DNA from: a virus
Taxonomy: Duplodnaviria > Caudoviricetes
IMG/VR virus record: IMGVR_UViG_3300005095_000053
Location: 1 to 45,080 of that record
Direction: 5' to 3' (one strand)
Length of the DNA stretch: 45,080 nucleotides
Of this stretch, positions 28,124-45,080 are shown in pieces. How positions within the stretch are numbered: position 1 is the first letter of the stretch; every line of letters begins with the position of its first letter. The notes under the pieces were generated by a model. It ran no database searches and was not told where the DNA came from. It saw nothing but the letters and a program-made list of their open reading frames with translations. Both the position numbers and the translations under genes were made by a program.

Positions 28124-28216
28124 TTAAAATATACTTTTAATAAAAACTAATAATGCAATTACTATTATAAATAAATGAGCTATAAAAAATAGCCCATTTA
28201 TTTCTAAAAAACTCAT
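28124..28216 (-). CDS. Possible 30-aa membrane micropeptide
   Basis: MSFLEINGLFFIAHLFIIVIALLVFIKSIF; ATGA overlap with the upstream stop and fills the gap. Confidence 0.35.
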   Translation of the reverse strand: MSFLEINGLFFIAHLFIIVIALLVFIKSIF

Positions 28217-28882: not shown

Positions 28883-29223
28883 CTTTCATCTCCTTTAAAT
28901 ACATCATTTGATATAAAGCTCCATATACCATTCTTTTTTTCTTTATAAACAATTACACTATCAGTTGCATTGTTAGCTTTATTATCTAAATAATCCACTG
29001 CTAGTTGTGCATATCCAGCAATATCTCTCCAATTATCTATATATCTTGAACCACCATTGATTATTCTTGCAAGTTTATGTGCAATCATTTCAAATGCTTC
29101 ATTTATTGTTGCATCTATTTCATCTGTGATATTTGCATAATACATATCTTTAATTTTTTGACTAATTTCAGATATTTCTTGAAAATCACCATATATTTTT
29201 TTTCTTTGTTCTAGTGTGTTCAT
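28879..29223 (-). CDS. DUF6378-like protein
   Basis: TLEQR...YGDF...MIAHKLARIING....DNWRDIAGYAQL. Confidence 0.75.
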   Translation of the reverse strand: MNTLEQRKKIYGDFQEISEISQKIKDMYYANITDEIDATINEAFEMIAHKLARIINGGSRYIDNWRDIAGYAQLAVDYLDNKANNATDSVIVYKEKKNGIWSFISNDVFKGDER

Positions 29224-29350
29224 TTATACCTCCTTTATATTTTTTTTCTTTTTTATAATCTTTGTACCATCTATGCTGTATCCAAAAAGCATTATATACA
29301 GAACCAATTGCTGAAAGCAAAGAAAATAAAAGAATTAAAGTATCTTTCAT
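29186..29350 (-). CDS. Small membrane peptide
   Basis: MKDTLILLFSLLSAIGSVYNAFW; AAGGA RBS. Confidence 0.45.
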   Translation of the reverse strand: MKDTLILLFSLLSAIGSVYNAFWIQHRWYKDYKKEKKYKGGINEHTRTKKKNIW

Positions 29351-29361
29351 TGTTTTCCTTT

Positions 29362-29607
29362 CTAATGCCAAAAAATTAAATAATTATATTCATCTATGAT
29401 ATTTGACATATTGTTCTTATATTTAAAACCAATGTAGTCAAACAATTTAATTAACTTATCATCTGATAATTCATTTATGTCAACTCTTATTTCTTGTTCA
29501 CCGTTAGAATCATTAATCCATTCTTGATAATTTATATTGTTACAATAAAGAAATTTTGTTAATGATGATAAATTTATTCTAATAAATAATGCTTTTAAAG
29601 CTTTCAT
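29362..29607 (-). CDS. Hypothetical protein
   Basis: 81-aa ORF with ATGA overlap. Confidence 0.6.
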   Translation of the reverse strand: MKALKALFIRINLSSLTKFLYCNNINYQEWINDSNGEQEIRVDINELSDDKLIKLFDYIGFKYKNNMSNIIDEYNYLIFWH

Positions 29608-30242
29608 TGTTTTCCTTTAAAACATTTTTTATAGTTTGCTTTATACCAAAGATATTTTTTTGATAAATCTTTTTGAAATTTTCCATCAACTATAGAACCA
29701 ACTCTGCTGTTTATTTCTTTTGCAACTTCTTTTAATACACATTCTGGTTCATATCCAAGTTTCATAATTGCTCCTATTGAGAACACAATAATATCTGCAA
29801 ATCCATCTACTATTTCATCACAATTTCCTTTTTTGCAAAAATCATTTGCATTAACAATTTCAAAATCTGTTGTAATAGAATCTTTATTTGTATGAGACTT
29901 AAAATAACCATCATCAACAAGTTGTTTGATATATTCTCTTAAATGTGTTTTTAATTTGTTTCTTTTTTCTTTATCTAGTTCTAATCCAAGCATTTCAAAC
30001 AATTCTTCTAAAATATTTACAGCTTCATTGCTCCAAATAAGATTTTGTTTATCAAGTAATCTATCAGTTTGAAATTTTTTTATTTTTTCTATAGGATTAG
30101 TACTTGTATTTATTATTTCAATCGCTCTATCTATTTTATTTCTCATCTTTATTGCACTATTATGTCTTCTGCATTCATCAAGTTCATCACTAAAATCAAA
30201 CATCTCATGTAAAATATTAAGTAAAGAATCTTGTTCAAGCAT
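29604..30242 (-). CDS. MazG-like NTP pyrophosphohydrolase
   Basis: NILEELFE...EIVDGFADIIVF..G...LG...VLKEV..EINSR...DGKFQK. Confidence 0.7.
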   Translation of the reverse strand: MLEQDSLLNILHEMFDFSDELDECRRHNSAIKMRNKIDRAIEIINTSTNPIEKIKKFQTDRLLDKQNLIWSNEAVNILEELFEMLGLELDKEKRNKLKTHLREYIKQLVDDGYFKSHTNKDSITTDFEIVNANDFCKKGNCDEIVDGFADIIVFSIGAIMKLGYEPECVLKEVAKEINSRVGSIVDGKFQKDLSKKYLWYKANYKKCFKGKQ

Positions 30243-30501
30243 TGTTCCTCCTTTTATTTGTTATTTTCCATTTTTTTATTTTGTCTAAATGTTTTCTTTT
30301 TTTTTCAAGCAAGCTTACTATTGAGTTAATTAAATAACAATCATCATTACAATTTATTTTATTTCTTAAATTGTTTTCTAATATTGAAATATCAATACTT
30401 ATTTCATTTATTAATTCATCAATTGTTTTTCTATGTTTTAATAAATATTCATCAAGATCTATTCCATAAAGTTCATCATATGAAAAATCATTATTTTTCA
30501 T
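30235..30501 (-). CDS. Hypothetical protein
   Basis: 88-aa helical ORF; AAGGTGG RBS. Confidence 0.6.
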   Translation of the reverse strand: MKNNDFSYDELYGIDLDEYLLKHRKTIDELINEISIDISILENNLRNKINCNDDCYLINSIVSLLEKKRKHLDKIKKWKITNKRRNNA

Positions 30502-30511
30502 TGAACCACCT

Positions 30512-30736
30512 TTAATTTTGATTGTTATTTCTTTTGTTTAAATAAAAAATCCATTCGTCTAATTCATTTTTTATGTATTCAATATCTTTATGTGATAATC
30601 CTAATTCAACAGCAAGTTCTTGTAATTCATAATTTGTTGGTTCTTCATAAAAAAAATGGAAAAACATGTTTTTCTTTATTACAAAAATATCTTTTCCATT
30701 TTTATCAAGTCCAAAAATTATGTCAATATTTTTCAT
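30512..30736 (-). CDS. Hypothetical protein
   Basis: 74-aa ORF; AAGGAG RBS. Confidence 0.6.
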   Translation of the reverse strand: MKNIDIIFGLDKNGKDIFVIKKNMFFHFFYEEPTNYELQELAVELGLSHKDIEYIKNELDEWIFYLNKRNNNQN

Positions 30737-30831
30737 TTAGTACTCCTTATAAATTTATTTGTTTTTATTAGTTTAAGAATTTATTCAAAAAAAGAACCAC
30801 TAATGAATATTTATGCAACAAATCATCATAA

Positions 30832-31626
30832 TTATTTTTTGTTTTTAATTCTTTTATAATTGTTTTTTATTTTTTCATTTGTTAAAATTAACTCTCTGTA
30901 ATCACTAGGTAAAGCATCAATCATATCAACACATAATTGTTGAAATTCTTGCAATGCATCTTTGCTTGTTCTTAATTCTAATAGATGAATTAATGATCTT
31001 AAATTAAATGAATATTGTCCTTTAAATTTAAATGCTTCTGGTAAAGCATATTTTGCTATATCATTACTAACTCCACTAACTAAATCCTGTCTTAAATTTT
31101 CAAGAGCCAAAATTGAATTATAATCTGTTCTATCATTTCCAGTAAAATATAAATATTTGCTTGCTCTTTTCCCGACTTCAGTATTTTGGCAATTAAAATC
31201 ACTATCTAAATGAAATGGTTTTTCATTCTTTAATGAATTTAGATTATCTCCATTAGTTCCTTTTGTTAATGTATATCTTGTTGACATCACTGTTGCACTT
31301 ATACCTATTCTATGGCGTGATAATTGTTGTAATAATGCTCTACTTGATTCTATTTCATAAATGATTAATGAATGTTCTAAAACACTTTCATGTTTCATTT
31401 TAAAACCAACTCTTTTTATTAAATCAAAATCTTTATCTCCTAATATACAAGTTGTTGGAACAACTTGTTGTATAAAATCTTCTTTTGTCGCATCAATTGT
31501 TTTATTCCAGTCTTCTATATCAAGTTTTAAAAATTTTGAATCACTTAAATGATGATTACCATGACTATATCTTATACCATTTGCAATAAACCATAATGGT
31601 GATGAATAAAGTAATTTTGCACTCAT
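30832..31626 (-). CDS. thyX: Flavin-dependent thymidylate synthase
   Basis: HESVLEH, SRALLQQLSRHR.....VMSTRY, AKYALP, NLRSL.HLLELR. Confidence 0.93.
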   Translation of the reverse strand: MSAKLLYSSPLWFIANGIRYSHGNHHLSDSKFLKLDIEDWNKTIDATKEDFIQQVVPTTCILGDKDFDLIKRVGFKMKHESVLEHSLIIYEIESSRALLQQLSRHRIGISATVMSTRYTLTKGTNGDNLNSLKNEKPFHLDSDFNCQNTEVGKRASKYLYFTGNDRTDYNSILALENLRQDLVSGVSNDIAKYALPEAFKFKGQYSFNLRSLIHLLELRTSKDALQEFQQLCVDMIDALPSDYRELILTNEKIKNNYKRIKNKK

Positions 31627-31643
31627 TTTTTCCTCCTTTATAT

Positions 31644-32027
31644 TTATTTATTTAATGCAATAAATCTATTTTTTGATTCTATTAATATTTGTTTTATTTT
31701 TTTGTAATTTATTTTTTTAGAATTAAATACAATATCTATCATCTCTTTTGCTGCTAATAAATCAATGACTGAATTATTTTTTATATCATGCTTTTTCAAC
31801 ATTCCAACAATATACTTATATTGTGGATTCTCATTTACATCTGGATATACAAAATGTCTAAATACTACCAGATCTTTTATATGTTTTTTGTTCGATGAAG
31901 AATTGTTGTCTATATTTTCAAATATAAGAACTCTTGTATTTAATCTATTACAATCAACTATTATTTCATATTCTGTTTTCCAATAATCTTCAACAAATTT
32001 TTTCATTTTGTCTATAATGCAATTCAT
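31644..32027 (-). CDS. Hypothetical protein
   Basis: 127-aa ORF; AAGGAG RBS. Confidence 0.6.
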   Translation of the reverse strand: MNCIIDKMKKFVEDYWKTEYEIIVDCNRLNTRVLIFENIDNNSSSNKKHIKDLVVFRHFVYPDVNENPQYKYIVGMLKKHDIKNNSVIDLLAAKEMIDIVFNSKKINYKKIKQILIESKNRFIALNK

Positions 32028-32044
32028 AATATGCTCCTTATTGT

Positions 32045-32272
32045 TTAAAATTCATCAGTTGAGTTAAATGTTAATTTCTCTTTTTTTATATTAAAATAAA
32101 CATAATACGATTTTAATAATTTTGATTTACTCATCATTCTATTTCCAACATAATTATGTACAAAATCATCAGTTTCTGCACAATAAAAGGTATTTTCTTT
32201 AGAACCACATTTGGTGAATGTGGCTCTCATAACATCTTCTTTTGCTAATCTTGTAATTTCATCTTTTAACAT
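32045..32272 (-). CDS. Hypothetical protein
   Basis: 75-aa ORF; AGGAGG RBS. Confidence 0.6.
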   Translation of the reverse strand: MLKDEITRLAKEDVMRATFTKCGSKENTFYCAETDDFVHNYVGNRMMSKSKLLKSYYVYFNIKKEKLTFNSTDEF

Positions 32273-32285
32273 AGTGTTCCTCCTT

Positions 32286-34367
32286 TTATCTCTTATTTTT
32301 TATTGATCTAATAATTTTATTTAACTCACTAATATTAAGCGGTTTATCTAATTTATGGTTTGTTTCATGTAATATTCTTTCTACAAGCTCAATATCATCA
32401 GATATATCACTAACAAACATACCAAGTCTAAATAAGTTGTTGTTTCTGTTTCCTTCATATGTATTTGATAATGTCCACCTTATCATTCCATTTATTCTTT
32501 TTTCTAATTCATCATCATTAATTTTTATATCTTTTAATTTTGATAGTTGGGTATTTGTTTTTTCATTTAATTCAGTGTCTGGTAAATATGGCAAAACATC
32601 AAAAAGTTCTCCATTTTCATTTTTAAATACAATAGCATCTGGATTTGTAAACCATAACCTATCAATATTTCTTGTTGATACATCATAAGAACCTACTCCT
32701 AATGCTTCACATATATTTGTTATTAATTGTTTATGTTGTTCATTATCAACAAAAAATTTTGTTTTTGTTGGTAATATTATTCTAAATCTATCACAGATTA
32801 TTCCATTTTTTTCTTTTCTATGTGATTTTGTTGTATATATCAAATAAACATAGTTATTCATAATATCTAAAATATCATCTATCAAAACACCATTATCAAC
32901 ATCTATTCCTATTAAATTTTGGCCTTCTATAATATTGTCCGATTTTCTTTTACCATTTTTAAAATGAACAAAACAAAAATTACTAACTTTTTCTGAAGTA
33001 ATCAATCTTTCTACTGATTGTTTTTCAATTCCAAAAAATGGTATTTCAACTGAAATATATTCAGTTGTTTTTTCTTTCTTATCAACCATTGGTATTGATA
33101 CCACACATTTATTTAAATCATTCAATGGTAGTGGTTCTATTGAATAAAATTTTACTTTAGAACCATTTGTCTTTAATATTTCATTGTTTCTATAACATAA
33201 CTCTTCTACTAATTTTATATCCTCATTAAAAGTAAGTCTATTAAAAATATCTTTTTCAAGTATTTCAGATTTTGTTAGTTTTTTATAATGTTTTATAATA
33301 TTGTAAATCCTTTTGTGTTGTGGTTCAACATTAAATAAACTAAAATTTGTTTGTCTACATCTAGAATAAAAATCATATGCATATTCAACATTTCTACTAT
33401 CAACATTATCACTACCATTAACAATGGCATGTAATGCACTAAGTTTTAATATTTTTTCAAAAGATCCTATTTCAGCACTCATTCTAGAATCATTTTTATG
33501 TTTGTTAGAAAAAGTAACTAATTCATTGTTGATAAAATCAAGAATTTCAAGTGCATCTGTATTAATGCTTATTATTGAATCAAGCCCTGTTTTCATAACT
33601 GATTTGTTATTAGAGATAAATTCTCTAACATTATCTTTGTAAATTGGTTGTTTTATTGTATAATTATTGTTATTAATTTCAATATCTCGTGGTTCTTCAT
33701 AAAAAATAAATGTTCTACGATACATTCCAGATGATAATGTTTTATTAAACAATTCATATATTTTCGGATCTCTCTTTAATGCTATTGATGAGCCAAATAA
33801 TAATGCATTTGTTCTTATTCCATATAAATTTTCATTTATGTTTGCTTTTATTATTTTTCCTATAAATTTTCCATCATATAATTCTTTTAATGTATCTATT
33901 GTACTATTAGACATAATATCTAGTATTTCTTCATTGATTAGATTTAGTGAACCACTAAAAGCTCTTGATAATGCTAACGCTCTTAAATATAACCCTTCTC
34001 TTGTTCCTTCTATTGAGTTTTCAAAATCTGGTAAAAAACTTTTTATTTTTAATTTATTGCCATCTATTATTATTTCTTCTTGATATTTATTATTTTGATC
34101 ATATGCAAATTGTATTGCATACTTCCATTTTTCTATAATTTCTCCATAATAATCTTTGATTTTTTTATATGAAAAACTTTTACCAGAACCACTTCCAGCT
34201 AATGTAATTCCATAATAATTTACTTGATAAAAATTGTTTTTATATTCAATTGCTGGATTTACAATAGAAATAATAGATGATGTTGCAAACCAAAATGCAT
34301 TTTCTATTATTTCATTACTTGTTTTAAATCTTCCAAGTGAATTTACATAGTCAATTATATCTTTCAT
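32286..34367 (-). CDS. Primase with N-terminal P-loop ATPase and C-terminal PriCT-like domain (N4 gp43-like architecture)
   Basis: AGSGSGKS; GIDVDNG, YTTKSH, DRFRIILP; EGNRNNNLFRLG. Confidence 0.8.
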   Translation of the reverse strand: MKDIIDYVNSLGRFKTSNEIIENAFWFATSSIISIVNPAIEYKNNFYQVNYYGITLAGSGSGKSFSYKKIKDYYGEIIEKWKYAIQFAYDQNNKYQEEIIIDGNKLKIKSFLPDFENSIEGTREGLYLRALALSRAFSGSLNLINEEILDIMSNSTIDTLKELYDGKFIGKIIKANINENLYGIRTNALLFGSSIALKRDPKIYELFNKTLSSGMYRRTFIFYEEPRDIEINNNNYTIKQPIYKDNVREFISNNKSVMKTGLDSIISINTDALEILDFINNELVTFSNKHKNDSRMSAEIGSFEKILKLSALHAIVNGSDNVDSRNVEYAYDFYSRCRQTNFSLFNVEPQHKRIYNIIKHYKKLTKSEILEKDIFNRLTFNEDIKLVEELCYRNNEILKTNGSKVKFYSIEPLPLNDLNKCVVSIPMVDKKEKTTEYISVEIPFFGIEKQSVERLITSEKVSNFCFVHFKNGKRKSDNIIEGQNLIGIDVDNGVLIDDILDIMNNYVYLIYTTKSHRKEKNGIICDRFRIILPTKTKFFVDNEQHKQLITNICEALGVGSYDVSTRNIDRLWFTNPDAIVFKNENGELFDVLPYLPDTELNEKTNTQLSKLKDIKINDDELEKRINGMIRWTLSNTYEGNRNNNLFRLGMFVSDISDDIELVERILHETNHKLDKPLNISELNKIIRSIKNKR

Positions 34368-34990
34368 TTTAACTCTCCTTTTATAAATTTTTGTCTTATT
34401 TTTTTTAAATAATCATAACTAATGTAATCTTTTCCATATATTTTTGTTATTTTTTGATATATATCTTTTGGTTTTAAACTTTTATTCACTCTTAAGAACC
34501 TCAACACAAGTTCTTTTTTTTCACCACTTTTATCTATTTGTCTATAACCATTCTCAATCATCCAGTCAATAATTCCATATTTATATGCAAGTTTTTTTAT
34601 TCTGTCAGTTTTTATTCCATATTTTTTTTCAACACATGAAACTATGAAATTACATTTTCTCAACATTGTTTTTAAATTACTTTTTGATACATATTTTCTT
34701 CTTCTTCTATATTTTTTTGCTCCAGCAAGTCTTGCAACAACAGATACATATTCTTTGTTTGAATATCCAAGAATTTCAGCTATTTTTGAATTTGAAAATC
34801 CTAGATCTCTTAATTCTGCAACTCTTTTTTTTCTTTCTTCTACAAGTGATATATTGAACCACCTTAACATTCCTTTTATCTCATTTACTGAAACTCCAAG
34901 ATAATTTGCAATATCTTTTGAATTTATTTTATCTGGATTTTCTTTTATAAAATTTAATACTTTTTCTTTATTTTCTTGTGTATATTTCAT
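34364..34990 (-). CDS. Multi-HTH DNA-binding protein
   Basis: SKDIANYLGVS and SNSKIAEILGYS tandem HTH motifs; very basic. Confidence 0.65.
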   Translation of the reverse strand: MKYTQENKEKVLNFIKENPDKINSKDIANYLGVSVNEIKGMLRWFNISLVEERKKRVAELRDLGFSNSKIAEILGYSNKEYVSVVARLAGAKKYRRRRKYVSKSNLKTMLRKCNFIVSCVEKKYGIKTDRIKKLAYKYGIIDWMIENGYRQIDKSGEKKELVLRFLRVNKSLKPKDIYQKITKIYGKDYISYDYLKKIRQKFIKGELK

Positions 34991-35007
34991 TTTTTGATCT
35001 CCTATTT

Positions 35008-35766
35008 TTAAAGATCTATTTGCATTGGATTCTTTTTAAAATTTTTATACCACAAACATTTATCATTGTATGAACAATATTTTTTACATCTTATCGGTTC
35101 TGATCTACCTTTACTTTTTCTCCACCATAAATCTTCACAATGAATATTTTTTATCTCGTCATCACTTAATTTTTCTAATGCATTGATTTTATCAATAATT
35201 TCATAAAATCTTTTTTCTACATCCAGATAAGAGACATCTATTTCAATTAAGTCTAGTGATAAAATATCAATATTTTTTGAAATGTTGTATCCTCCATCTT
35301 TTAAAACAAACAAAATTCCAGTTTTAAAGTCAGTTTTAAACACATTATTAGCAAGATATTTGTATACGGCTAATTGCCATCTGTATTGGTGGTTCTTATC
35401 CTTAAGTACATTTTCTATTGTGTATGATTTTGTTGTTTTTATATCTATGATCCATTCGTTGTTCATTAAATCAATAGAACCACTCAATTTCCATCCATTG
35501 TCAAATGGTTTTTCAATTGATAATTCAATTTCAAAATCATCATATAATATTCTTTGTATAGCTAAATGTAATAATGTTCCTATTGTATTTTGTCCAAATT
35601 CTTCTTTTTCAATAACTCCATATTTTTGTTTATAATATATTTGTAAAATATCAGATCCAAATTCACTTGCCGTTATTGTTTTTGAATTTGGCTCTGTGTT
35701 ACCCTGATATTTTGTCTCATCAACTAATCTTTTTTTAATTAATTCTAATATATCTTGTGATTTCAT
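35008..35766 (-). CDS. Cas4-like PD-(D/E)XK exonuclease
   Basis: GTLLH, LSGSID...IIDIKT, QLAVY, C-terminal RC..YC.Y...C. Confidence 0.8.
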   Translation of the reverse strand: MKSQDILELIKKRLVDETKYQGNTEPNSKTITASEFGSDILQIYYKQKYGVIEKEEFGQNTIGTLLHLAIQRILYDDFEIELSIEKPFDNGWKLSGSIDLMNNEWIIDIKTTKSYTIENVLKDKNHQYRWQLAVYKYLANNVFKTDFKTGILFVLKDGGYNISKNIDILSLDLIEIDVSYLDVEKRFYEIIDKINALEKLSDDEIKNIHCEDLWWRKSKGRSEPIRCKKYCSYNDKCLWYKNFKKNPMQIDL

Positions 35767-35786
35767 TTTTTCCTCCTTGTTTATTT

Positions 35787-36079
35787 TTATTTTTTTATTT
35801 CTCCTAAAAGATTTAATCTAGCATTATTTGTTAAATAATAAATTCTTTTTCCTTTTGGTTTAAATAAAAATCTAATTTTTTCTATTAAAAAATCCAGTGC
35901 ATCACAAAAACATTTTTCATCAAAACAATGCAAATCAAATAAGTCATCTCTTATATCATTTGAGAGAATGTAAAATATATTTTTTTTTCATCAAAATAAA
36001 CAATTTTAAAAAATACAGATGATATTGTATAAATACAAGTTTCTATATTTGAATAATTTTTTGATAGATATTCTCTCAT
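35787..36079 (-). pseudogene. About 97-aa ORF split by a frameshift in an A9 run
   Basis: Frame 0 from ATG 36079 stops at 35951; the -1 frame after the A run (35980-35988) is open to TAA at 35787. Confidence 0.5.
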
Positions 36080-36080
36080 C

Positions 36081-36509
36081 TCATCTATCAAATTCACTAT
36101 TTTCATTTTTAAACTCCTTTTTATTGTAATACATTAAATTATTTTTATAATCGCTTATTGATTTATTAAAAAATAATGGATTTATTGTAATGATAGAACC
36201 ACTTCTTGAAATAAAACCTATTTCTTTTAATTCTTTCATATATTTTTTTATTAATGATTCTGAAACATTTATTTTCTTTGCAAGATATTTATTTGTTGCT
36301 CTTAATTGATTGTTTTTTCTTGCATGTGTAAGTATATATTTTATCAGTCTACCTTTTGAGCCTAACAAATTGAATAATGAATAAAATTCATTAAATACAA
36401 TGTTAAATTTTCTTTTTATTTTTTTCTTTTCTGTCAAGTGTGGATCATAAACCAAATCAATTGTCTTTGTCTCATTATTTTTGTTTACAAGCTCTAGTTT
36501 TCTATACAT
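36081..36509 (-). CDS. RepL-like winged-HTH protein
   Basis: AGGAG RBS before ATG 36509; TNKYLAKKINVSESLIKKYMKELKEIGFISR....INP. Confidence 0.65.
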   Translation of the reverse strand: MYRKLELVNKNNETKTIDLVYDPHLTEKKKIKRKFNIVFNEFYSLFNLLGSKGRLIKYILTHARKNNQLRATNKYLAKKINVSESLIKKYMKELKEIGFISRSGSIITINPLFFNKSISDYKNNLMYYNKKEFKNENSEFDR

Positions 36510-36533
36510 AAAATACTCCTTTACTATAAAAAA

Positions 36534-36598
36534 GTACAAAAATATTGTACCAAAAAAAAGTACAAAAATATTGTACTCTTGGTACAATATTTTTGTAC
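36534..36598. promoter_or_regulatory. Three 17-bp quasi-palindromic repeats (operator or iteron-like)
   Basis: GTACAAAAATATTGTAC at 36534-36550 and 36560-36576, inverted copy at 36582-36598. Confidence 0.75.
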
Positions 36599-36754
36599 TT
36601 TTAAAAATAGCTATACTTTCCGAAATCTAGGGAATATAAAGCAATCTGTAAAAATTTTTTCTATATATATAGAAAAAAATAAAAAAATTAATTTTTTTTG
36701 TTTTTTTAAAAAAAAGAAAATTACAGAATAAAAGGAGAAAAAAAAATCAACAGA

Positions 36755-37363
36755 TTAAAAATCTGGTATATTATCTGTTGATGGTTCTCTTTGTTGTTTG
36801 TTTTCTTCTTTAAAAACTGGTTTTTTCTCTATTCTATTTTTTAATTTTTCAATACATTCAGTATCTTCTGCACAACATACATCAACTAATTCATATCTTG
36901 TTTTTTCTTCACCATTTTGATTATAGTAAATTCTATCTCTAATACCAAATGCAAATTTTTTGTTAATTACATCTTTTACAGATGGTAGTTTTTTAACTTC
37001 TCCCCATACTTCAACTGCTTTTTCTTCAAAAGTTAATTGATTAACTCTTTTACCTAAACATTTTGCCATCTTGTCTAAAATTACTAATCCACTAAAATAT
37101 CCACCATTTGAATTTTTAACTGATCCATCTGATTTCTTAACCATTCTCTCAACTGCCCAACCTACTAGTCTTAATTCAATATCATTTGGAATTTCTCCAA
37201 TATCTATAATAAAATTTACATATGCTGTTCCATTTTGAGTCTTATCTAAAAATGCATTTCTTACTACACCTAAATAAACTCCAGGAGTTAATTTTTCATA
37301 ACTCCCTTGTTTTTCTTCTTGTTCATCAAGTTCTTGTAAATTTACTTGTTTTAACCAATCCAT
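36755..37363 (-). CDS. Single-stranded DNA-binding protein
   Basis: L.PGVY.G.V...F OB-type start, acidic C-terminal tail ending DNIPDF, near the Sak4-like gene. Confidence 0.65.
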   Translation of the reverse strand: MDWLKQVNLQELDEQEEKQGSYEKLTPGVYLGVVRNAFLDKTQNGTAYVNFIIDIGEIPNDIELRLVGWAVERMVKKSDGSVKNSNGGYFSGLVILDKMAKCLGKRVNQLTFEEKAVEVWGEVKKLPSVKDVINKKFAFGIRDRIYYNQNGEEKTRYELVDVCCAEDTECIEKLKNRIEKKPVFKEENKQQREPSTDNIPDF

Positions 37364-37431
37364 TTTCTACTCCTTTCATGTTTTTTTAATTGTTTTATAA
37401 AAATGTTGTTTGTTTTTTTTTAAATTGTGAA

Positions 37432-37638
37432 TTATTTATATTTTTGATTATTGTTAAATTTATTAGCTATCACTAGCTCTAATTCTGTTGTTAGAAAATC
37501 TTCTTTGTTTGAATTTAAGTAAATTCCATCTTTAACTCCTTTCATTTCAATTTCAATTCTTATTGAATTTATATCTTTACAACATAATCTTTCTCTAATT
37601 AAGTCAAATAATTCTCTTTTTGTAATATGAATTTCCAT
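37432..37638 (-). CDS. Hypothetical protein
   Basis: 68-aa ORF; AGGAG RBS. Confidence 0.6.
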   Translation of the reverse strand: MEIHITKRELFDLIRERLCCKDINSIRIEIEMKGVKDGIYLNSNKEDFLTTELELVIANKFNNNQKYK

Positions 37639-37641
37639 TTT

Positions 37642-37905
37642 TTACTCCTTTTGCATTTTTTCTTGATAATCTTGCAACTCAAACCATGCTTTTATAGCCT
37701 CTTCTTCACTATCAAAAAATCTTGCAACAGCTTTATTTTTTAAAAAACCATAAACTGCAAAAATAGAACCACCACAGGGATGGAAAACAGAGACTAAATT
37801 TTTTTTGTTTTTATATTTATGCTCTATTGTTTTCAGGTGGTTCTTTATATACATTCTTTCTTCATGTGATATATATTCATGAATGTTATTCTCTATTTCC
37901 ATCAT
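37642..37905 (-). CDS. Hypothetical protein
   Basis: 87-aa ORF; GAGGA RBS. Confidence 0.6.
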   Translation of the reverse strand: MMEIENNIHEYISHEERMYIKNHLKTIEHKYKNKKNLVSVFHPCGGSIFAVYGFLKNKAVARFFDSEEEAIKAWFELQDYQEKMQKE

Positions 37906-38251
37906 CTTCCTCTAATTGTTTAATAAATGACATTGTGTATGATAATACAACTGCATCAGTTTCACTATTTTCTTCATTGTACCATTTTTGCAAAATTTCT
38001 AATAATTTTGATCTCAATCTATGTATAAGCAATTCATAGTTACTAGTATATTTAACGCCATACTCTATTAATAGAAATGGCAAATACCAGTGATTATTTT
38101 TTAACATTATTTTTGCAAGTGCAAAATAACTTGCATCTCTTAAAGAACTATATTTGTAATCTTTACCATGTACTAATATTTTTAATTCTTCATCAAACAA
38201 TTTAGACATTTTTTTTATGTCATTATAGTCACTAAATTTCAAGATTTTCAT
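37886..38251 (-). CDS. Hypothetical protein
   Basis: 121-aa ORF; GAGGAG RBS. Confidence 0.6.
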   Translation of the reverse strand: MKILKFSDYNDIKKMSKLFDEELKILVHGKDYKYSSLRDASYFALAKIMLKNNHWYLPFLLIEYGVKYTSNYELLIHRLRSKLLEILQKWYNEENSETDAVVLSYTMSFIKQLEEDDGNRE

Positions 38252-38927
38252 TTTTAACTCCTCTTAATAAATTTATTATTTTTTGCATATCGTAAAGTGC
38301 ATCATTTTCATATATTACTGTTGGAATTCCAAAATCAATTAATCTATTTTTTCCTACAGCATCTTCTGTTGGTTCTGATATAAGAACCCTTTTTCCTTCA
38401 TTATCAATTACAATATGTCCAACAAAATCAAAATAAGATGGAATAGTACTTTTAAATCTATTTGCCTTATACATTGGATGTTTTATTAAATAACCACCAT
38501 CATTAACTTCTTCTTCTAATGCTGTAATAATTATATTTTTATCTATTGCTAAAATGTCTTCTAATCTTTGCCTTGATATAGTATCAAAATCACCCCATAA
38601 TTTCATTGAATCTCTTTTATCAGGATAAACTTTACTTAATGCAACGAATAACATTTCTCCATATCTTGTAAGAGAATCTATTACAATAGTATCATAATCT
38701 TGTTTTTTTACCCATTCTAAAACATCTTTAAATTGTTTTGCATTTGAAATTGGAATAACATCTATATCTTTATTTTTCACTGATGCACTACCTTTTTCTA
38801 AATCAAGAACCACTGCATTTTCAACAGAACCAGCCAAATGTGTTTTTCCAACACCACTTCTACCATATAATAATGCTTTTAAATTTTTTGCGATTAAATC
38901 TTTTGGTTTGATAGGTTTAAAATCCAT
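38232..38927 (-). CDS. Sak4-like AAA ATPase (ssDNA annealing)
   Basis: LLYGRSGVGKT, LDLEKG, TIVIDSLT, FDFVG, GKNR. Confidence 0.85.
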   Translation of the reverse strand: MDFKPIKPKDLIAKNLKALLYGRSGVGKTHLAGSVENAVVLDLEKGSASVKNKDIDVIPISNAKQFKDVLEWVKKQDYDTIVIDSLTRYGEMLFVALSKVYPDKRDSMKLWGDFDTISRQRLEDILAIDKNIIITALEEEVNDGGYLIKHPMYKANRFKSTIPSYFDFVGHIVIDNEGKRVLISEPTEDAVGKNRLIDFGIPTVIYENDALYDMQKIINLLRGVKNENLEI

Positions 38928-38950
38928 TTTATCTCCTTTTCTTTGATTTT

Positions 38951-39217
38951 TTATTTATAAGTTTCATATCTAATAACATCAACTAAACCATACAATAACT
39001 CATCTACACTATATTTACTAAATATTGGAGTTATATCTCCTGAAATTTTTTGTTTTATTGTATAAATATCAACTTCAAATTGAGAACCACTATTGCAAAA
39101 ATGTCTTATACATACATCAATTTTATTTGATGTATAAAACTCTATTGCCTTGAAAAATTCTTTTTCATTTGTTAAAATAACATGCACTCCTATACCAAGT
39201 CTAGTTCTTGTTCTCAT
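38951..39217 (-). CDS. Hypothetical protein
   Basis: 88-aa ORF; AAGGAG RBS. Confidence 0.6.
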   Translation of the reverse strand: MRTRTRLGIGVHVILTNEKEFFKAIEFYTSNKIDVCIRHFCNSGSQFEVDIYTIKQKISGDITPIFSKYSVDELLYGLVDVIRYETYK

Positions 39218-39235
39218 TAGGCTCTCCTTTTTTTT

Positions 39236-39436
39236 TTAGTTTTCTTTATCAAAATAAATTAGAAATATTGCATATAATAAATCATTGAAATTAATTCTAC
39301 AATCATCAGAATTTTCAAGTGCTTCATATATTACATCTTCTACATCTAAATTTAATTCTTTAATTAATAAATCAATTAAATCTATTTTTTCTTTATTAGC
39401 ATTAAAAAATATTTCAATAAAATTGTTTTTATCCAT
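39236..39436 (-). CDS. Small acidic hypothetical protein
   Basis: 66-aa ORF; AGGAG RBS. Confidence 0.6.
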   Translation of the reverse strand: MDKNNFIEIFFNANKEKIDLIDLLIKELNLDVEDVIYEALENSDDCRINFNDLLYAIFLIYFDKEN

Positions 39437-39758
39437 GTGATCTCCTTTTAATTAAATTTATTTCTTTTTTTAATTTTTCATTTTCTTTATATAAATCATT
39501 TGCATATGATAATAGTATTTCAACAACTTCTTTACAATCAAAAATATCACATAAACTAATTTCATATGTTTCTATAACATCACAATCATAATCTTCACTT
39601 TCATTTACATAAAAACTTCTACAATTAACAAGTTCTAATGTAATTAATGGTTCATTGTATCTTATCATTAATGGAACCACATAATCTAAATTATCTATCA
39701 TATCATCTATTGCATCATTATAATCAATTGTTTCAGCTGAATATCTTACCTCTTTCAT
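39429..39758 (-). CDS. Acidic hypothetical protein
   Basis: 109-aa Asp/Glu-rich ORF; AGGAGG RBS. Confidence 0.65.
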   Translation of the reverse strand: MKEVRYSAETIDYNDAIDDMIDNLDYVVPLMIRYNEPLITLELVNCRSFYVNESEDYDCDVIETYEISLCDIFDCKEVVEILLSYANDLYKENEKLKKEINLIKRRSHG

Positions 39759-39780
39759 TTTGTTTCCTCCTTTTTGTAAT

Positions 39781-40275
39781 TTAAATATTTTCTTTAATAA
39801 AAGAAATTAATCCATCTTTTGTATATGTGCTTATTGGCTCTCTATATTGTTCATATAAATCATTATTTATTTTTTTAGCAATCTCATACAATTCTTGTTT
39901 TGACATCATTTCTAGTGGTTTCAACCTAAATATATCTACACCATCATGATGATAATTTTCTACAATTATTTCTTCACTATCTTCTTCAAATGAAATAATT
40001 AATCTATTTGTATCTTTAATGTTTTCTATTACTTCTTCAAGTGACATTATTGTTAAATCATCAATACAATAATTGTTATTCCATTTCTCAACACAACCAC
40101 TTAAAAAACCATCAATATATCCATATTCTGTCATTATATATTCAAAATCTTCCATTGCATCATCAACAAAATATTCACAATCACAATCTTCACCATTATC
40201 TGTGTAGCATTTGTAATAATTATCACTATCAAAATACAATTCTCTTAATTTTTTCTTCATTTTTCTTTTATCCAT
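39781..40275 (-). CDS. Acidic hypothetical protein with HHDG motif
   Basis: 164-aa Asp/Glu-rich ORF; AGGAG RBS. Confidence 0.65.
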   Translation of the reverse strand: MDKRKMKKKLRELYFDSDNYYKCYTDNGEDCDCEYFVDDAMEDFEYIMTEYGYIDGFLSGCVEKWNNNYCIDDLTIMSLEEVIENIKDTNRLIISFEEDSEEIIVENYHHDGVDIFRLKPLEMMSKQELYEIAKKINNDLYEQYREPISTYTKDGLISFIKENI

Positions 40276-40290
40276 TGTTACTCCTTTTAT

Positions 40291-41742
40291 TTAAAATTTG
40301 TATTTTTTAATTGTTTGTTCATAGAACCATTTTGGAAAAGATTTAAAATTTTCAATTCTAGAACCACTATTTACAATGTTTCTTAATCTTGTTTTGTATG
40401 CTTTTATTGTTGATTTTTTCTTATTAAATTTTTCAAGTTTTTCAAGATAAAAATTCATTTCATAAATGATTTTCTCAATAATTGAACCTCTTAAATAATA
40501 ACCTTTTTTTCTTCTATTAACTTCATTTATGATATTTACTATCATTCTGACATCATCAGTATATTCGAATAATATTTTTAATTGTTCTATTGTTGCTGAT
40601 GCTAAACTAATTTGTTTCTCATAAAAAGATAAATTTTTATTTATATCTTTGTATGAAAATGCATAGTTATTATCTTTAATTGTTTTAAATATTGCACTAA
40701 TCATTTTTGAATCTTTTCCATTATCTATTTCTGGTATACCATGAACAAATAAATTATTTGACAAACATATATACTCAAATTCTTTTTTATTTTTTGTTAT
40801 TCTTGAACCACGACCTATCATTTGATAAAAAAGACTTTTTATTTTTGTTGGTCTTAAATCAATTATTCTTTCAATGTTAGGAGCATCAAATCCAGTTGTC
40901 AAACTTGTTACACCAACAAGAACCTTTATTTTTCCATTTTTAAAATCATTAACTAAATTCTCATGGTGGTTCTTTGAATGAAATACATTAACATTTAATA
41001 ACTTTGCAATATCATTTGCCATATCAATATTTGAACAAAAAATTAATGTTTGTCTATTATCTAGTGATTTAAAAAAATTTTTAAATTCATCTTTAAAAAA
41101 TTGTTCTTTATACAATTTTCTTATTGATTCTTGAGAATAATCAAACCCAGATACTTTTAAATCTTCAAAATTCATTTTTTTAATAAAATGTGGAATTACA
41201 TATTTTGCTCTTGCAATATAACCAAGTTCTTCAGCATCTGTGTATTTAATAGGTTCATATATGTTGTTTGATATTAGATTTCCTTTTTGATCAAAAGGCG
41301 TTGCTGTAAAACCTATTAATTTTACTGGTTTTAATTTGTTTATTATTGAAATAAATCTTTCTCCATTTCTTCTTTTGTGTGCCTCATCATACAAAATAAC
41401 AAGATCTTTATTATGCTTAAATTTAATTCTTTCAAGCCTATTATAAAGCGTTTGTTCACTTGCAAGTGTTATACTACCTAGAATGATAGAATCGTTGTCA
41501 GAAACAATTCTAGATATGTTTAACGACATATTTTTAAAGTGCTCTTCAAGTTGATTGATTAATTGTAAAATATCAGATGAAATAAGAACATTGTATTTAT
41601 CTAATATTTCTTTTGCTATTCTTGGCATTAAATATGTTTTACCTAAACCTGTGTATAGTTTTATGATTAGTTCTTTGTCTTTGTCTTTTTTCATGAAATC
41701 ATTTACTTTTTTAATTACATCACTTTGATATTTCCTCAACAT
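40291..41742 (-). CDS. Superfamily 2 (DEAH) helicase
   Basis: LRKYQ, TGLGKT, DEAH, TATP, LTTGFDAP, QMIGRGSR; start moved to MLRKYQ behind an AAAGGA RBS. Confidence 0.9.
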   Translation of the reverse strand: MLRKYQSDVIKKVNDFMKKDKDKELIIKLYTGLGKTYLMPRIAKEILDKYNVLISSDILQLINQLEEHFKNMSLNISRIVSDNDSIILGSITLASEQTLYNRLERIKFKHNKDLVILYDEAHKRRNGERFISIINKLKPVKLIGFTATPFDQKGNLISNNIYEPIKYTDAEELGYIARAKYVIPHFIKKMNFEDLKVSGFDYSQESIRKLYKEQFFKDEFKNFFKSLDNRQTLIFCSNIDMANDIAKLLNVNVFHSKNHHENLVNDFKNGKIKVLVGVTSLTTGFDAPNIERIIDLRPTKIKSLFYQMIGRGSRITKNKKEFEYICLSNNLFVHGIPEIDNGKDSKMISAIFKTIKDNNYAFSYKDINKNLSFYEKQISLASATIEQLKILFEYTDDVRMIVNIINEVNRRKKGYYLRGSIIEKIIYEMNFYLEKLEKFNKKKSTIKAYKTRLRNIVNSGSRIENFKSFPKWFYEQTIKKYKF

Positions 41743-41795
41743 ATTTATCCTTTTCACAACATAAATATTTTTTTTAAATAAAAAATGAAAAAAGA

Positions 41796-42170
41796 TTAAC
41801 AAATTTTTCTTATTATTTTTGGAACAAGTGTTCCATTTTTGTTTACTATTATCCAGTCTCTATAAAGTGCTAAAATTGGTAATCCTAATTCTTCTACTTT
41901 TCTTATAAGATCTTCTAGTTCAACTAAATCACCAACCGATCTTTTTTTTCCATCAATTCTAATTTCTAATTCATCTATTGTTTCTCTGAATACTTGATAA
42001 TCTATAAAATCTTTTTCTTCATTATTTCCTACTGTATAAATTCCTTCCCAAACATGAAATAATGAATTGTATTTAATAAACAAAGCTATGTTTTTTAATA
42101 ACTCTTTTTTTTTTGTATTACCATTAACTTCTATTAACATTTCATCAAAATTCCAAATAAATTTTTTCAT
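41796..42170 (-). CDS. Early hypothetical protein
   Basis: 124-aa ORF; AGGAG RBS. Confidence 0.65.
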   Translation of the reverse strand: MKKFIWNFDEMLIEVNGNTKKKELLKNIALFIKYNSLFHVWEGIYTVGNNEEKDFIDYQVFRETIDELEIRIDGKKRSVGDLVELEDLIRKVEELGLPILALYRDWIIVNKNGTLVPKIIRKIC

Positions 42171-42261
42171 TTTTGTCTCCTTTTTTTAATTTTTTGTCTT
42201 TATTTTGTCTTTAATATTTTGTCTTGATAAAATAAAATTACACAAAAAAGAACAAAAAATT

Positions 42262-42432
42262 TTATTTTGTATATTTTTCTAATAAGTTTCTCAAATAGTC
42301 TAATTCTTCTTGGAGGTCCACCGATATTGCTCCATCTTCTGGAGATGGAACATCTTTTTGAAATAGAAGATCTAACTGATCTTCTATTTCTTTGATTCTT
42401 TTTTTAATTTCTCTAATATTTAAATTTTCCAT
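42262..42432 (-). CDS. 56-aa acidic helical protein missing from the ORF track
   Basis: MENLNIREIKKRIKEIEDQLDLLFQKDVPSPEDGAISVDLQEELDYLRNLLEKYTK; AAAGGA RBS. Confidence 0.65.
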   Translation of the reverse strand: MENLNIREIKKRIKEIEDQLDLLFQKDVPSPEDGAISVDLQEELDYLRNLLEKYTK

Positions 42433-42443
42433 ATCATTTCCTT

Positions 42444-42716
42444 TTACAGATCTAAATGGAAGTATTTTAGGCTTTTATCTTCGATCATATATAAAACATT
42501 TGCATCATCTACATCTAAATCTTTAATAACATCACCAAGTTTTCTATAATCCTCATATCCAGACATTTCGTCTGGATCAAACACACCATATAAATATTCA
42601 CTTAAACCTAATTCAGTATTTTTTCCGAACCACCATCCGCAAAGTCCAACTGTGATGTTTTCCCATTCAGGATAAATTTCTTTAAAATTTCTAAAATTTG
42701 TGCTTTTTATTTCCAT
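42444..42716 (-). CDS. Early acidic hypothetical protein
   Basis: 90-aa ORF; AGGAG RBS. Confidence 0.65.
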   Translation of the reverse strand: MEIKSTNFRNFKEIYPEWENITVGLCGWWFGKNTELGLSEYLYGVFDPDEMSGYEDYRKLGDVIKDLDVDDANVLYMIEDKSLKYFHLDL

Positions 42717-42732
42717 TTGTACTCCTTTTATA

Positions 42733-43146
42733 TTAATTTTGATTTATTTTTTTTAGAATTTCTCTTTGTATGTTTTCTTCTAATTCTTCAAGTAAACAAT
42801 ATTCACCTCTATACATGATGTAACAATCATCTTTCAAACTGAAATAACAGCTTGTCGCTGTTATTCCCATAATATCTGTTTTTTTACATGAAAAATCCTT
42901 TATTTTGTCCATATCAGCTTTACTTATTAAACAAACGCTATCCTCTGAAGAGAGGTAGCATACTTGTATTCTTTTTTCATATTTATTGAAAAAAGGTAAA
43001 TACACGCAAAAAATTGTATTATCATCTTCTATTTCTTCTCTTTTCGGGACATCGCACACTATCTCTGTCCCTTTTTTTAAATCTAATTTTGTAGTTACAA
43101 ACTCTTCTAATTCTTTCTTTGTCTTGATATCATAATCTAAAGTCAT
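42733..43146 (-). CDS. Early hypothetical protein, Cys-rich
   Basis: 137-aa ORF; AAGGA RBS. Confidence 0.65.
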   Translation of the reverse strand: MTLDYDIKTKKELEEFVTTKLDLKKGTEIVCDVPKREEIEDDNTIFCVYLPFFNKYEKRIQVCYLSSEDSVCLISKADMDKIKDFSCKKTDIMGITATSCYFSLKDDCYIMYRGEYCLLEELEENIQREILKKINQN

Positions 43147-43294
43147 TTTTTATCCTTTCTTTTTAATATTTTTTATTATCAATAAAAGAACCACTAAATA
43201 ATATAGATAATATATCATTTGATGGTTCTTTTGTCTATTCTGTCTTTTTTTTGTCTGTATAAAAAGGAGGTTAATAAAAAATTTTAAATAGCTA

Positions 43295-43315
43295 AAAGGG
43301 GATTTATTCCCCTTT
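43295..43315. terminator. Intrinsic terminator-like hairpin
   Basis: AAAGGGGA-TTTAT-TCCCCTTT just downstream of gene 43325-43690. Confidence 0.6.
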
Positions 43316-43324
43316 ATTTATTTT

Positions 43325-43690
43325 TTAAACAAATAATATTTTTCCTAAATGAGAGCAAAGAAGTACTGGTTCTTTACTCTCTTTAATTATTTTATATAAT
43401 TCTAAAGATTGACTATCTAAAAGTTTTTCATCAAATTCATCTTTAAAAACATCATTACATTTATTTACATATATTATTTTTGTTGGATTAAAATCAAATA
43501 TTTTTTTATTTTCTTTATATACTGTAACAAATCCAAAAATTTCATCTACTCTTTTTGCTTGACAACATCCAGCGTTGTAGTCATATACTACAACGCCTCT
43601 TGCCGCTTGTTTTATAGCGGCAAGGATATAACAACTATCTTTTTTCATAATATTTAATTTTTTTCTATAAAAATTTCTACTTTTTCTCAT
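43325..43690 (-). CDS. Early hypothetical protein
   Basis: 121-aa ORF; AGGAG RBS. Confidence 0.65.
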   Translation of the reverse strand: MRKSRNFYRKKLNIMKKDSCYILAAIKQAARGVVVYDYNAGCCQAKRVDEIFGFVTVYKENKKIFDFNPTKIIYVNKCNDVFKDEFDEKLLDSQSLELYKIIKESKEPVLLCSHLGKILFV

Positions 43691-43818
43691 ATTTTCTCCT
43701 TTTTTTGTTTTTTATTTTTTTTTAAACATCTACATCAAAAAACCTAAAAACTACACATAAAAGAACCAATACAGAGCCCATTAGGGCTCTCTACTGGTTT
43801 TTTTAATTTTTTTTGGGG

Positions 43819-43989
43819 TTAAAGGGCTAACGCCCTTTTCCCTCTAATATATAAATTCCATTTATCAAATTTCTCAATAATAATAAAACCATTAAAAAAA
43901 CTAAAAAATCTAATTTCATTAAAATCTAAACAATCACAAAAAATTACAAAATTTTTAATTTTAAATTCTCTTAAAACTCTCATATCCAT
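43819..43989 (-). CDS. 56-aa Phe-rich protein missing from the ORF track
   Basis: MDMRVLREFKIKNFVIFCDCLDFNEIRFFSFFNGFIIIEKFDKWNLYIRGKRALAL; AAGGAGG RBS. Confidence 0.55.
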   Translation of the reverse strand: MDMRVLREFKIKNFVIFCDCLDFNEIRFFSFFNGFIIIEKFDKWNLYIRGKRALAL

Positions 43990-44036
43990 ATTAACCTCCT
44001 TAATAAAAATTTAAATTTAATTTAAAAAAGAACCAA

Positions 44037-44084
44037 AAAAATAATAATACAACCACCATCTATGGTGGTTCTATTATTATTTTT
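44037..44084. repeat. 22-bp-arm inverted repeat with one C.C mismatch
   Basis: AAAAATAATAATA-C-AACCACCA-TCTA-TGGTGGTT-C-TATTATTATTTTT. Confidence 0.85.
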
Positions 44085-44118
44085 GATAATAAATATTAAA
44101 CTGAAGATGAGTCAGGGA

Positions 44119-44343
44119 TTAATACCCTAACTCATCTAATAATTTTGCTGCCAGCATATCATCATATGCTGGCATAATTTCTTTAATTTTTTTGATAAAC
44201 TCTTTTTCATCCTCAAGAGCCAGTAGCTCTTGAGGAATGAAAATTGTTAGCCCATTTCTTTGGGCTATTACTCTACCATCAGGTAGAGTATCAAAATATA
44301 AATCCAAAATAGACTCAATTAATTCAAAATTTTTCATATTCAC
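44119..44343 (-). CDS. Early acidic hypothetical protein (hairpin-tiled CDS)
   Basis: Track ORF of 74 aa from GTG 44343; AGGAG RBS spacing favours ATG 44337. Confidence 0.7.
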   Translation of the reverse strand: MNMKNFELIESILDLYFDTLPDGRVIAQRNGLTIFIPQELLALEDEKEFIKKIKEIMPAYDDMLAAKLLDELGY

Positions 44344-44366
44344 TCCTTTTGTTAAATTTATTTATT

Positions 44367-44415
44367 CTAATCTAACATAAACATACTATTAAGTAGTATC
44401 TTTATGTTAGATTAG
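44367..44415. repeat. 22-bp-arm inverted repeat with one C.C mismatch
   Basis: CTAATCTAACATAAA-C-ATACTA-TTAAG-TAGTAT-C-TTTATGTTAGATTAG. Confidence 0.85.
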
Positions 44416-44458
44416 TGTTATATTAAAAAACGATAGCAAAAATGTTGAAACAGAGAGC

Positions 44459-45080
44459 CTAAATTAGACTCTCTATTTCACTTTGAATCTCTCGGAGGAG
44501 TTCATACTCCTCCGTAGAGATTTTTCTCTCTTTAAGTTCTAAAATATAACTCAATAATTCTTCTAATTCCTGAGTTCTATCGAACTCTGGATCCTGTTTA
44601 TTGTAAATTTCGTTTGGCTCCCAAAGCTTTGCTCTTCTTGGGAGCTTTCTATATTTTAGTTCCTTTTTCAACCAATTATACTCTACTTTCTTTAATTCAT
44701 TCTTGAGGAGCTCTTTTCCTTGCTCCTCTAATACTATTTTACTCCAATGGCCAGTTCTTTTATCGAACCAGCCATAAAATTTTTTCCCATTTTTAGCTTC
44801 TAAACTATATACCTCGAAGCTTGGGAGATCCGCAACTAGATCTCCCAATTGTAATCTTCCAGATTCTATCAATAAACTTTTAACCCTACTAACAATAGTA
44901 GGGTTTTTCACATATATTCCATTTAATAAGAAATATAGAAATCCTTGTTTTGAGATTTTAGGGATGATCTCGTCATCCCCTAAATAAACTTTATTGTCTT
45001 TGATATATAAAGCTGAATTTATAACTTCTGGAGCTAGATTATCTAGTTCCATGTCCAAATCAATTACATCATAAGTGCGG
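44459..45080 (-). CDS. 3' part of the 236-aa early protein starting at 180 (hairpin-tiled CDS)
   Basis: Open frame continuous across the terminal overlap; no family recognised. Confidence 0.85.
   Translation of the reverse strand, partial: RTYDVIDLDMELDNLAPEVINSALYIKDNKVYLGDDEIIPKISKQGFLYFLLNGIYVKNPTIVSRVKSLLIESGRLQLGDLVADLPSFEVYSLEAKNGKKFYGWFDKRTGHWSKIVLEEQGKELLKNELKKVEYNWLKKELKYRKLPRRAKLWEPNEIYNKQDPEFDRTQELEELLSYILELKERKISTEEYELLREIQSEIESLI
44990..45080. repeat. Terminal direct repeat, copy 2
   Basis: Identical to 1-91. Confidence 0.95.

Follow-up and report, generated by a model that had tools for sequence, protein, structure and literature searches.

Why would a phage whose genome is 25% GC pack comparatively GC-rich hairpins into the coding sequence of its early genes, and do these structures act in RNA or in DNA? 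We find that the hairpin tiling is real: it far exceeds what chance would give, it is selected and specific to lineages, and it turns up again in phages that are not related. The window, that is, the whole 45,080-nt stretch analysed here, is one complete virus record with direct terminal repeats, and its 91-bp end overlap closes it into a circle of 44,989 bp. On the plus strand, the stretch from 985 to 27,526 encodes virion and lysis functions, among them terminase, portal, major capsid and endolysin; the minus strand carries, from about 750 downward, small genes without an assigned role, followed by those for a helicase, Sak4, SSB, a Cas4-like nuclease, a primase and a resolvase. The phage is complete, and its terminase and capsid are N4-like. 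Because a relative of the capsid was found in a Sulfurovaceae MAG, we infer a Campylobacterota host, taken here to be a low-GC bacterium with type III CRISPR; no spacer-like perfect match to window positions 26,000-45,080 was found in 401 genomes of the phylum (one or two candidates scored per genome), nor to positions 35,000-45,080 in 30 genomes of the family. Among the window genes no defence annotation was found, and none is a known anti-defence gene. Several N4-like GenBank records have an inward-facing terL that begins 2.3-3.4 kb from one end of the record; provided that such records follow physical ends, the physical end of this phage would lie near 1-950, and the hairpin zone, we infer, would therefore be the DNA that enters and is transcribed first.

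Every stem listed in a first-pass annotation of this locus was found where it had been placed. Those at 44106-44136, 44487-44521, 44568-44591 and 44617-44645 contain a mismatch or bulge, the remaining listed stems are perfect, and an additional one, at 44750-44774, had been missed. The stems placed past the join are also present: the join is the 91-bp terminal overlap, and the 236-aa ORF reads through it. The zone is wider than first reported, about 42,300-45,080 plus 1-540, and patchy, since three of its genes, at 593-748, 43819-43989 and 42444-42716, are not structured. Its features, and the promoter beside it, are these.

951 to 979, plus strand: strong sigma70-like promoter (11/12) facing the HU/terminase/late operon, at the divergence point near the inferred genome end.
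403 to 591, minus strand: 62-aa early gene; holds one stem of 12 bp (514-540) and, across its stop codon, a terminator-like one (398-414).
181 to 400, minus strand: intergenic leader with two long hairpins, then an unstructured A-rich ribosome-binding region.
1 to 180, minus strand: 5' portion of the 236-aa early gene, containing stems 84-109 and 119-140.
44459 to 45080, minus strand: 3' part of the 236-aa early gene, joined to 1-180 through the 91-bp overlap; the entire gene has 11 helices, which take up about 41% of it.
44446 to 44480, minus strand: terminator-like stem across the stop codon of the 236-aa gene.
44367 to 44415, no strand assigned: long intergenic inverted repeat (about 22 bp, 1 mismatch) upstream of the 72-aa gene.
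44119 to 44337, minus strand: 72-aa early gene, ATG after AGGAG, with stems 44149-44174, 44210-44236, 44248-44267 and 44269-44290; z -4.8.
44106 to 44136, minus strand: stem across the stop codon of the 72-aa gene, a 3'-end hairpin without a clear U tract.
44037 to 44084, no strand assigned: long intergenic inverted repeat (about 22 bp).
43325 to 43690, minus strand: 121-aa early gene, common to G126:C40 and L172, with stems 43599-43624, 43572-43596 and about 43351-43382; homologues have stems at the same sites.
42733 to 43146, minus strand: 137-aa early gene with weaker tiling (stem 42843-42865); z -3.3.
42262 to 42432, minus strand: 56-aa gene with stems 42331-42349 and 42360-42390, at the distal edge of the zone.

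For the small gene, a start at ATG 44337, which has a Shine-Dalgarno sequence upstream and gives 72 aa, is more likely than one at 44343.

A strand-neutral finder returned 22 inverted repeats in the 3,740 nt made up of 42.2-45.0 kb and 1-950 (5.9/kb), against 2 in 14,581 nt of the rest of the minus arm (0.14/kb) and 1 in 25,000 nt of the late arm (0.04/kb), in agreement with the earlier remark that the late genes have no such density. Likewise, perfect stems with a minimum of 7 bp and 3 G/C total 35, and 22 of them are concentrated in about 3.3 kb (42.3-45.0 kb plus 1-540); six genes hold 16 internal stems versus 1.8 after codon shuffling. When 59 genes were folded against codon-shuffled sequence, as the annotation had proposed, the lowest z-scores, terL apart, lay in the zone: -5.8 for the 121-aa gene, -5.7 for the 236-aa gene, -4.8 and -3.3 for the 72-aa and 137-aa genes and -3.2 for one further zone gene; terL, at -4.0, is the sole other gene below -3, and its energy excess is small. 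Across its first 900 nt (2569-3468), terL folds slightly better than its codon shuffles, by 1.3 kcal/mol per 60 nt. The window stems measure 7-13 bp with loops of 3-10 nt and, as had been noted, are unrelated in sequence, sharing no common repeat family; Rfam 15 gave no match in the window at gathering score. Calling the tiling almost end-to-end was an overstatement, as helices take up 52% of the length of the small gene and 41% of that of the 236-aa gene: the arrangement is dense without being continuous. The 14 perfect repeats of at least 9 bp inside the zone have a GC content of 44%, 2 of them being AT-rich, versus 16% for the 10 outside it, of which 7 are AT-rich.

The stems had also been said to use GC-rich codons atypical of the genome, which is true of CTC (8 of the 45 Leu codons in the two genes named, all 8 paired; 0.7% in the genome) and of GAG (20 of 37 Glu codons; 11% in the genome); CGC (1 of 13) and GCG (2 of 12) are few. 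Paired codons end in G or C in 51 of 132 cases and unpaired ones in 19 of 119, the genome-wide figure being 10%. The 236-aa gene provides a natural experiment on how this came about. Single-sequence searches with its product found nothing, and homologues were reached through terL neighbours and a profile (31 matches, 18 at E<=1e-10); five distinct ones, 35-44% identical, lie a few kb upstream of terminase genes (L122, near-identical to L163, was counted once), so the ORF is a real gene. Its product yielded an AlphaFold model of pLDDT 67 with no Foldseek match at E<=0.001, a best VIA Z of 5.5 and no usable Atlas match. Folding z-scores of the homologues are -1.0, -2.3, -1.0, -0.7 and -3.7, against -8.2 for the window gene: one phage encodes this protein through dense stems, four relatives encode it with no such stems, and the difference is largely synonymous. 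At conserved residues within stems, the third position is G or C in 7 of 13 window codons versus 5 of 59 homologue codons; outside stems, 8 of 47 window codons and 43 of 218 homologue codons end this way. Residues have not diverged more in stems (12/26) than outside (38/85). Since third-position GC rises only in stems and divergence is equal inside and outside, the stems were laid onto a conserved protein, and at conserved sites they were made mainly by synonymous AT-to-GC change against the genome bias. Strong selection has thus acted on nucleic-acid shape within phage early genes. This limitation of GC-ending codons to stems makes the stems look selected and lineage-specific rather than a family-wide code. 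Of the second structural code that had been proposed for the early genes, then, a selected layer stands, given the stem-confined GC gain and the recurrence described below, and a conserved family code falls; absence of stems from homologues, which the annotation had named as evidence against itself, is seen in four of the five distinct ones.

Similar zones recur elsewhere. Of four complete relatives, G003 has a clear cluster at the map position of the zone, the cluster of G001 is weak, the stems of G004 are mainly intergenic, and G002 shows nothing of the kind (L118, L067, L069, L063, L075 and L135, duplicate or short, were left out of the relatives' gene-folding survey). The G003 cluster comprises six consecutive small genes, unrelated to those of the window, with z from -1.5 to -5.5; an open A-rich leader precedes each early gene, and a stem spanning the stop codon ends most. 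Its stems divide into 6 in coding sequence, 6 across stops and 1 intergenic. In L166, the first early gene is tiled, the leader in front of it is largely unstructured, and 3 stems lie in coding sequence and 1 is intergenic in 1,852 non-coding nt. The L166 leaders (4240-4560, 4960-5110, 5330-5420) consist almost only of A and C, with clustered CAGAACCAAC repeats, and have apparently been selected for no structure. Along the G003 early row (L044:1-1900, L046:5400-6225), nearly all leaders carry, about 25-30 nt upstream of the start codon, a word resembling TAGCTWTTRTGA, in many cases with CAGAACCAAC ahead at variable spacing, a possible processing or regulator site. Near-identical phages G011 (L071:1399-1773) and G003 (L046:5515-5886) hold unrelated genes in their first early slot, an instance of cassette exchange.

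The 121-aa gene takes the comparison beyond these relatives. It recurs at about 45% identity in G126:C40, an unrelated 39.7-kb circular phage contig in a Campylobacterota bin, and in L172, a 60.8-kb viral record. Two stems are in register among the three genes, with 88% of cells paired; a third occupies the same site in shifted register, and one L172 stem is kept through four G.U pairs. Covariation, a further check proposed for the stems, is not significant in this family (n=3): 3 of 20 pairs changed on both sides, a count matched by 102 of 500 shuffles. Early genes of C40, a siphophage-like element, reach z -7.6, and a plus-strand gene within its structured early cluster, which we take to encode an endolysin, is unstructured (z -0.2). 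A tRNA-Met gene stands immediately upstream of the C40 early promoter, and csf1/csf2/csf3-like genes below NCBIfam cut-offs (L168:15456-18775, on C40) form a minimal type IV-like CRISPR module on a phage. In L172, the early cassettes at 4600-8650 form a row in which intergenic palindromes are perfect and very long (about 28 bp) and a single hairpin element occurs in three copies; the genes that follow are presumably amidoligase-like and glutamine-amidotransferase-like, and a 3' hairpin element is common to L172 and C40.

Relatives of the window phage also bear on what the zone might be for. The early row of G003 and G011 includes a Csx20 ring nuclease (163 bits, cut-off 70; L071:876-1259, minus strand), a candidate anti-type III gene; copies found in host loci with 25-27% GC match it at 86%, 83% and 78% identity, the first two of these lying in loci of 26-27% GC. 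Itself unstructured (z 0.0), it sits beside tiled genes. In the family of G126, csx20 exceeds its cut-off in 9 of 30 genomes and cas10 is found in 8 of 30, these genomes being incomplete. Csx20 degrades cA4 (10.1101/2024.09.24.614671), and the occurrence of csx20 in phage anti-defence operons is already reported (PMC13551039).

We posit, tentatively and as the best of several readings, that the stems shield mRNA from type III CRISPR and single-strand RNases. Folded in early mRNA, they would hide the first-expressed genes from type III complexes and from these RNases, a 22-31-nt hairpin every 40-90 nt raising the cost of opening a target of spacer length; as the stems are perfect on both strands, many guides copied from tiled genes would fold on themselves. 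Tiling could have been gained gene by gene under host pressure, which would explain its patchiness. Predicted costs agree in direction: opening 36 nt at 55 C takes 10.5 and 14.5 kcal/mol in the two named genes, against 4.1-6.1 in 12 control genes and about 5.8 in codon-shuffled sequence, and self-folding below -3 kcal/mol is predicted for 32-38% of 36-nt guides, compared with 0-16%. Further support comes from the stem-confined GC-ending codons, from start regions, of which 5 out of 8 in the window are open (MFE > -2 kcal/mol), from the unstructured plus-strand gene of C40 and the G.U-kept stem of L172, and from Csx20 in the G003 cassette row together with csx20 and cas10 in the host family. 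Stems also track coding sequence rather than DNA position, 12 of 13 in G003 and 3 of 4 in L166 lying in genes or across stops, with hardly any in non-coding DNA. Against shielding count the modest share of self-folding guides, the roughly half of bases in tiled genes that stay unpaired, the weak covariation (102 of 500 shuffles reaching 3 of 20), the unstructured Csx20 gene, a window without defence annotation and a host that spacer searches did not pin down; moreover, translating ribosomes would unwind stems in coding sequence. Published work points both ways: target RNA structure cut type III-B sensitivity up to 100-fold in vitro, from which evasion of type III by target folding was raised, yet at thermophile temperatures structure may count less (PMC8682760); early genes are the main source of type III spacers, yet hairpins have been proposed as substrates that favour spacer capture (PMC13575424); and Csx20 breaks down cA4 (10.1101/2024.09.24.614671). 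The more ambitious version of shielding, a protein-free anti-CRISPR in which the mRNA target and a guide from either strand both self-fold, a spacer hotspot yields weak guides, and the device evolved gene by gene in unrelated phages of one host group, strikes us as unlikely. The matched natural alleles let one ask whether viruses use target or guide folding to evade RNA-guided immunity in vivo.

Whether the stems fold in RNA or in DNA is where shielding meets its strongest competitor, and here the data lean to RNA but do not decide. Pairing in the coding-sequence stems of the window is almost purely Watson-Crick (162 pairs), with a single G.T and 3 further mismatches; sense and antisense strands fold equally well whether RNA or DNA parameters are applied, and the window has 8 intergenic stems besides. 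This strand neutrality, which tells against shielding, is what a DNA element or homogenisation of arms would give. DNA hairpins or cruciforms at the first-entering end could serve as landing sites or as brakes on nucleases and helicases, either behind RNA polymerase in transcription-driven entry or on the strand displaced at terminal replication. We regard this as rather doubtful, although the near-perfect pairing, the equal folding of both strands, the position of the zone next to the inferred genome end and the long intergenic repeats of the window and L172 all fit it, and short hairpins extrude at the N4 left end according to PMC4496689. Yet G003 and L166, whose genes are tiled, have hardly any stems in the non-coding DNA closest to the inferred end, homologues in the equivalent map position do without stems, and there is neither a common stem or loop sequence nor an excess of GNA loops. 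Pooled coding-sequence mismatches, moreover, lean weakly to sense-strand G.T, a bias seen in the relatives (10 versus 3 A.C, p 0.046; 11 versus 3 in a second count, p 0.06; an earlier 25 versus 6, inflated by terminator tails, was set aside in favour of coding-sequence counts). Were a DNA-level role correct, the zone would be an undescribed signal at the entering end of a genome. Of the options listed in the first-pass annotation, mRNA protection thus emerges as the best reading, if unproven, with the cruciform and single-stranded DNA options as its rivals.

A role in mRNA need not involve immunity. The stems could be general devices for the lifetime or elongation of early transcripts that are AU-rich and strongly expressed: they might block housekeeping RNases, make RNA polymerase pause or prevent R-loops. 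The RNA-level evidence for such devices is the same as for shielding, and the cassette layout, with open leaders and 3' stems, suits them, as would the long intergenic helices if, by analogy to T7, these are RNase III sites. We nonetheless think this unlikely: it gives no account of why homologues in close relatives need no stems, and it does not require perfect pairing. Nor do growth-temperature proxies separate the phages (IVYWREL 0.407 and 0.406 in tiled, 0.398 and 0.407 in untiled ones), and thermophily as the separator is not supported by these values.

Template switching, by contrast, would make the stems by-products, quasi-palindromes perfected in highly transcribed or single-stranded DNA and tolerated by the protein. 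It would explain their perfection, strand neutrality, unrelated sequences and lineage specificity, and PMC3820800 reports that such events increase with transcription in yeast. As a full explanation it is improbable: copying one arm cannot raise the GC of both, as the 44% versus 16% GC of zone and other repeats would demand; the third-position GC gain is confined to stems with no surplus of amino-acid change; and stems recur at the same protein sites in unrelated phages, once in shifted register. Template switching may instead be the mutational route by which selected stems are polished.

Finally, we consider it highly improbable that the stems serve as promoters, whether hairpin promoters of the N4 type for a virion polymerase or single-strand promoters resembling Frpo, as the annotation's comparisons implied, since, for all the N4-like terminase and capsid and the giant gene closing the virion operon, the 2,286-aa protein has no polymerase match and the stems are unrelated, lack GNA loops and lie inside genes. 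This protein (20666-27526), at the end of the virion operon, has two HExxH motifs and no match in PHROGs, Pfam, NCBIfam or PDB sequences by sequence searches; its nearest Atlas clusters are unnamed or LPD38/LPD39 polyvalent, which is a lead only, and counterparts in relatives run to 1,859-2,964 aa. It is probably an ejected polyvalent protein. Hairpins with GNA loops number 3 in 3.7 kb versus 19 in 41 kb, none of them a named stem, and promoter-like sites in 42-45 kb number 14 versus 19 expected by chance. Tailed phage DNA enters double-stranded, and the tailed-phage gene set argues against single-stranded entry. N4 early promoters, as described in PMC4496689, resemble the window in being short hairpins near the first-injected end of a phage with this type of terminase and capsid, and differ in their conserved heptamer, 3-nt G-N-A loop, position at transcription starts and need for a virion polymerase. 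Plasmid leading regions with Frpo/ssi, as described in 10.1101/2025.04.03.647016, share first entry, anti-defence cargo (compare Csx20 in a relative) and raised GC, but Frpo hairpins are long and intergenic, carry -35/-10 boxes and act on a strand transferred single-stranded, an anatomy that short, internal coding stems do not fit; the same preprint saw no excess of palindromes in leading regions. Intrinsic terminators were rejected, as minus-strand terminator matches are all stop-spanning or intergenic stems and none is internal to coding sequence; so were antisense terminators, 8 and 3 plus-strand terminator-like matches in two scans probably reflecting the T-rich plus strand.

Other known systems share single traits with the zone. 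The PeSL cassettes of T4-type phages (PMC2839356) likewise line up small early genes between stem-loops and exchange genes at a fixed slot, but PeSLs are repeated and intergenic whereas the window stems are non-repetitive and mostly in coding sequence. No repeated promoter plus stem-loop of this type was found in the window, with partial analogues in the G003 leaders and L172; modular exchange is suggested by the slot swap between G003 and G011 and by the presence of the 121-aa gene in three elements, the window having no close relative to compare. RNA viruses with genome-scale ordered RNA structure carry sequence-unrelated stems all through their coding RNA, and these have been proposed to weaken RNA sensing by the host; in such viruses the genome itself is RNA, whereas here the feature is local to early genes of a dsDNA phage. 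The nearest published anatomy is that of coding palindromes in Nematomorpha mitochondria (PMC6649704), which are also perfect inverted repeats over conserved protein, but reach 284 bp in mitochondrial genes, whereas those of the window are short, many and restricted to early genes. No report of hairpin-tiled phage early genes was found in the literature searched, which covered few subscription papers.

Several genome-wide observations accompany these results. The non-palindromic word GAACCAC occurs 59 times in the window versus 2.0 expected, over-represented on both strands and in all frames; AGAACCA occurs 130-167 times versus 12-14 expected in G001-G003, a different word, TGTAGCA, 82 times versus 9 in G004, and the over-represented word is absent from C40. 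The primases of G001-G003 are 57-68% identical to that of the window and that of G004 31%. Our guess is that the over-represented words are primase recognition sites, by analogy with the GTT/GCT sites of T4 primase, Chi-like protection being the alternative. CCGG and ACGT are wholly absent from the window, in which GATC is common, whereas G003 and G004 lack GATC and G002 has one; the window phage and G002-G004 therefore have different restriction histories. At 36556-36602, a 21-bp perfect AT-rich inverted repeat overlaps the start of a RepL-like gene and is a candidate operator or origin element, and six iteron-like palindromes lie close to the counterpart of this gene in G004.
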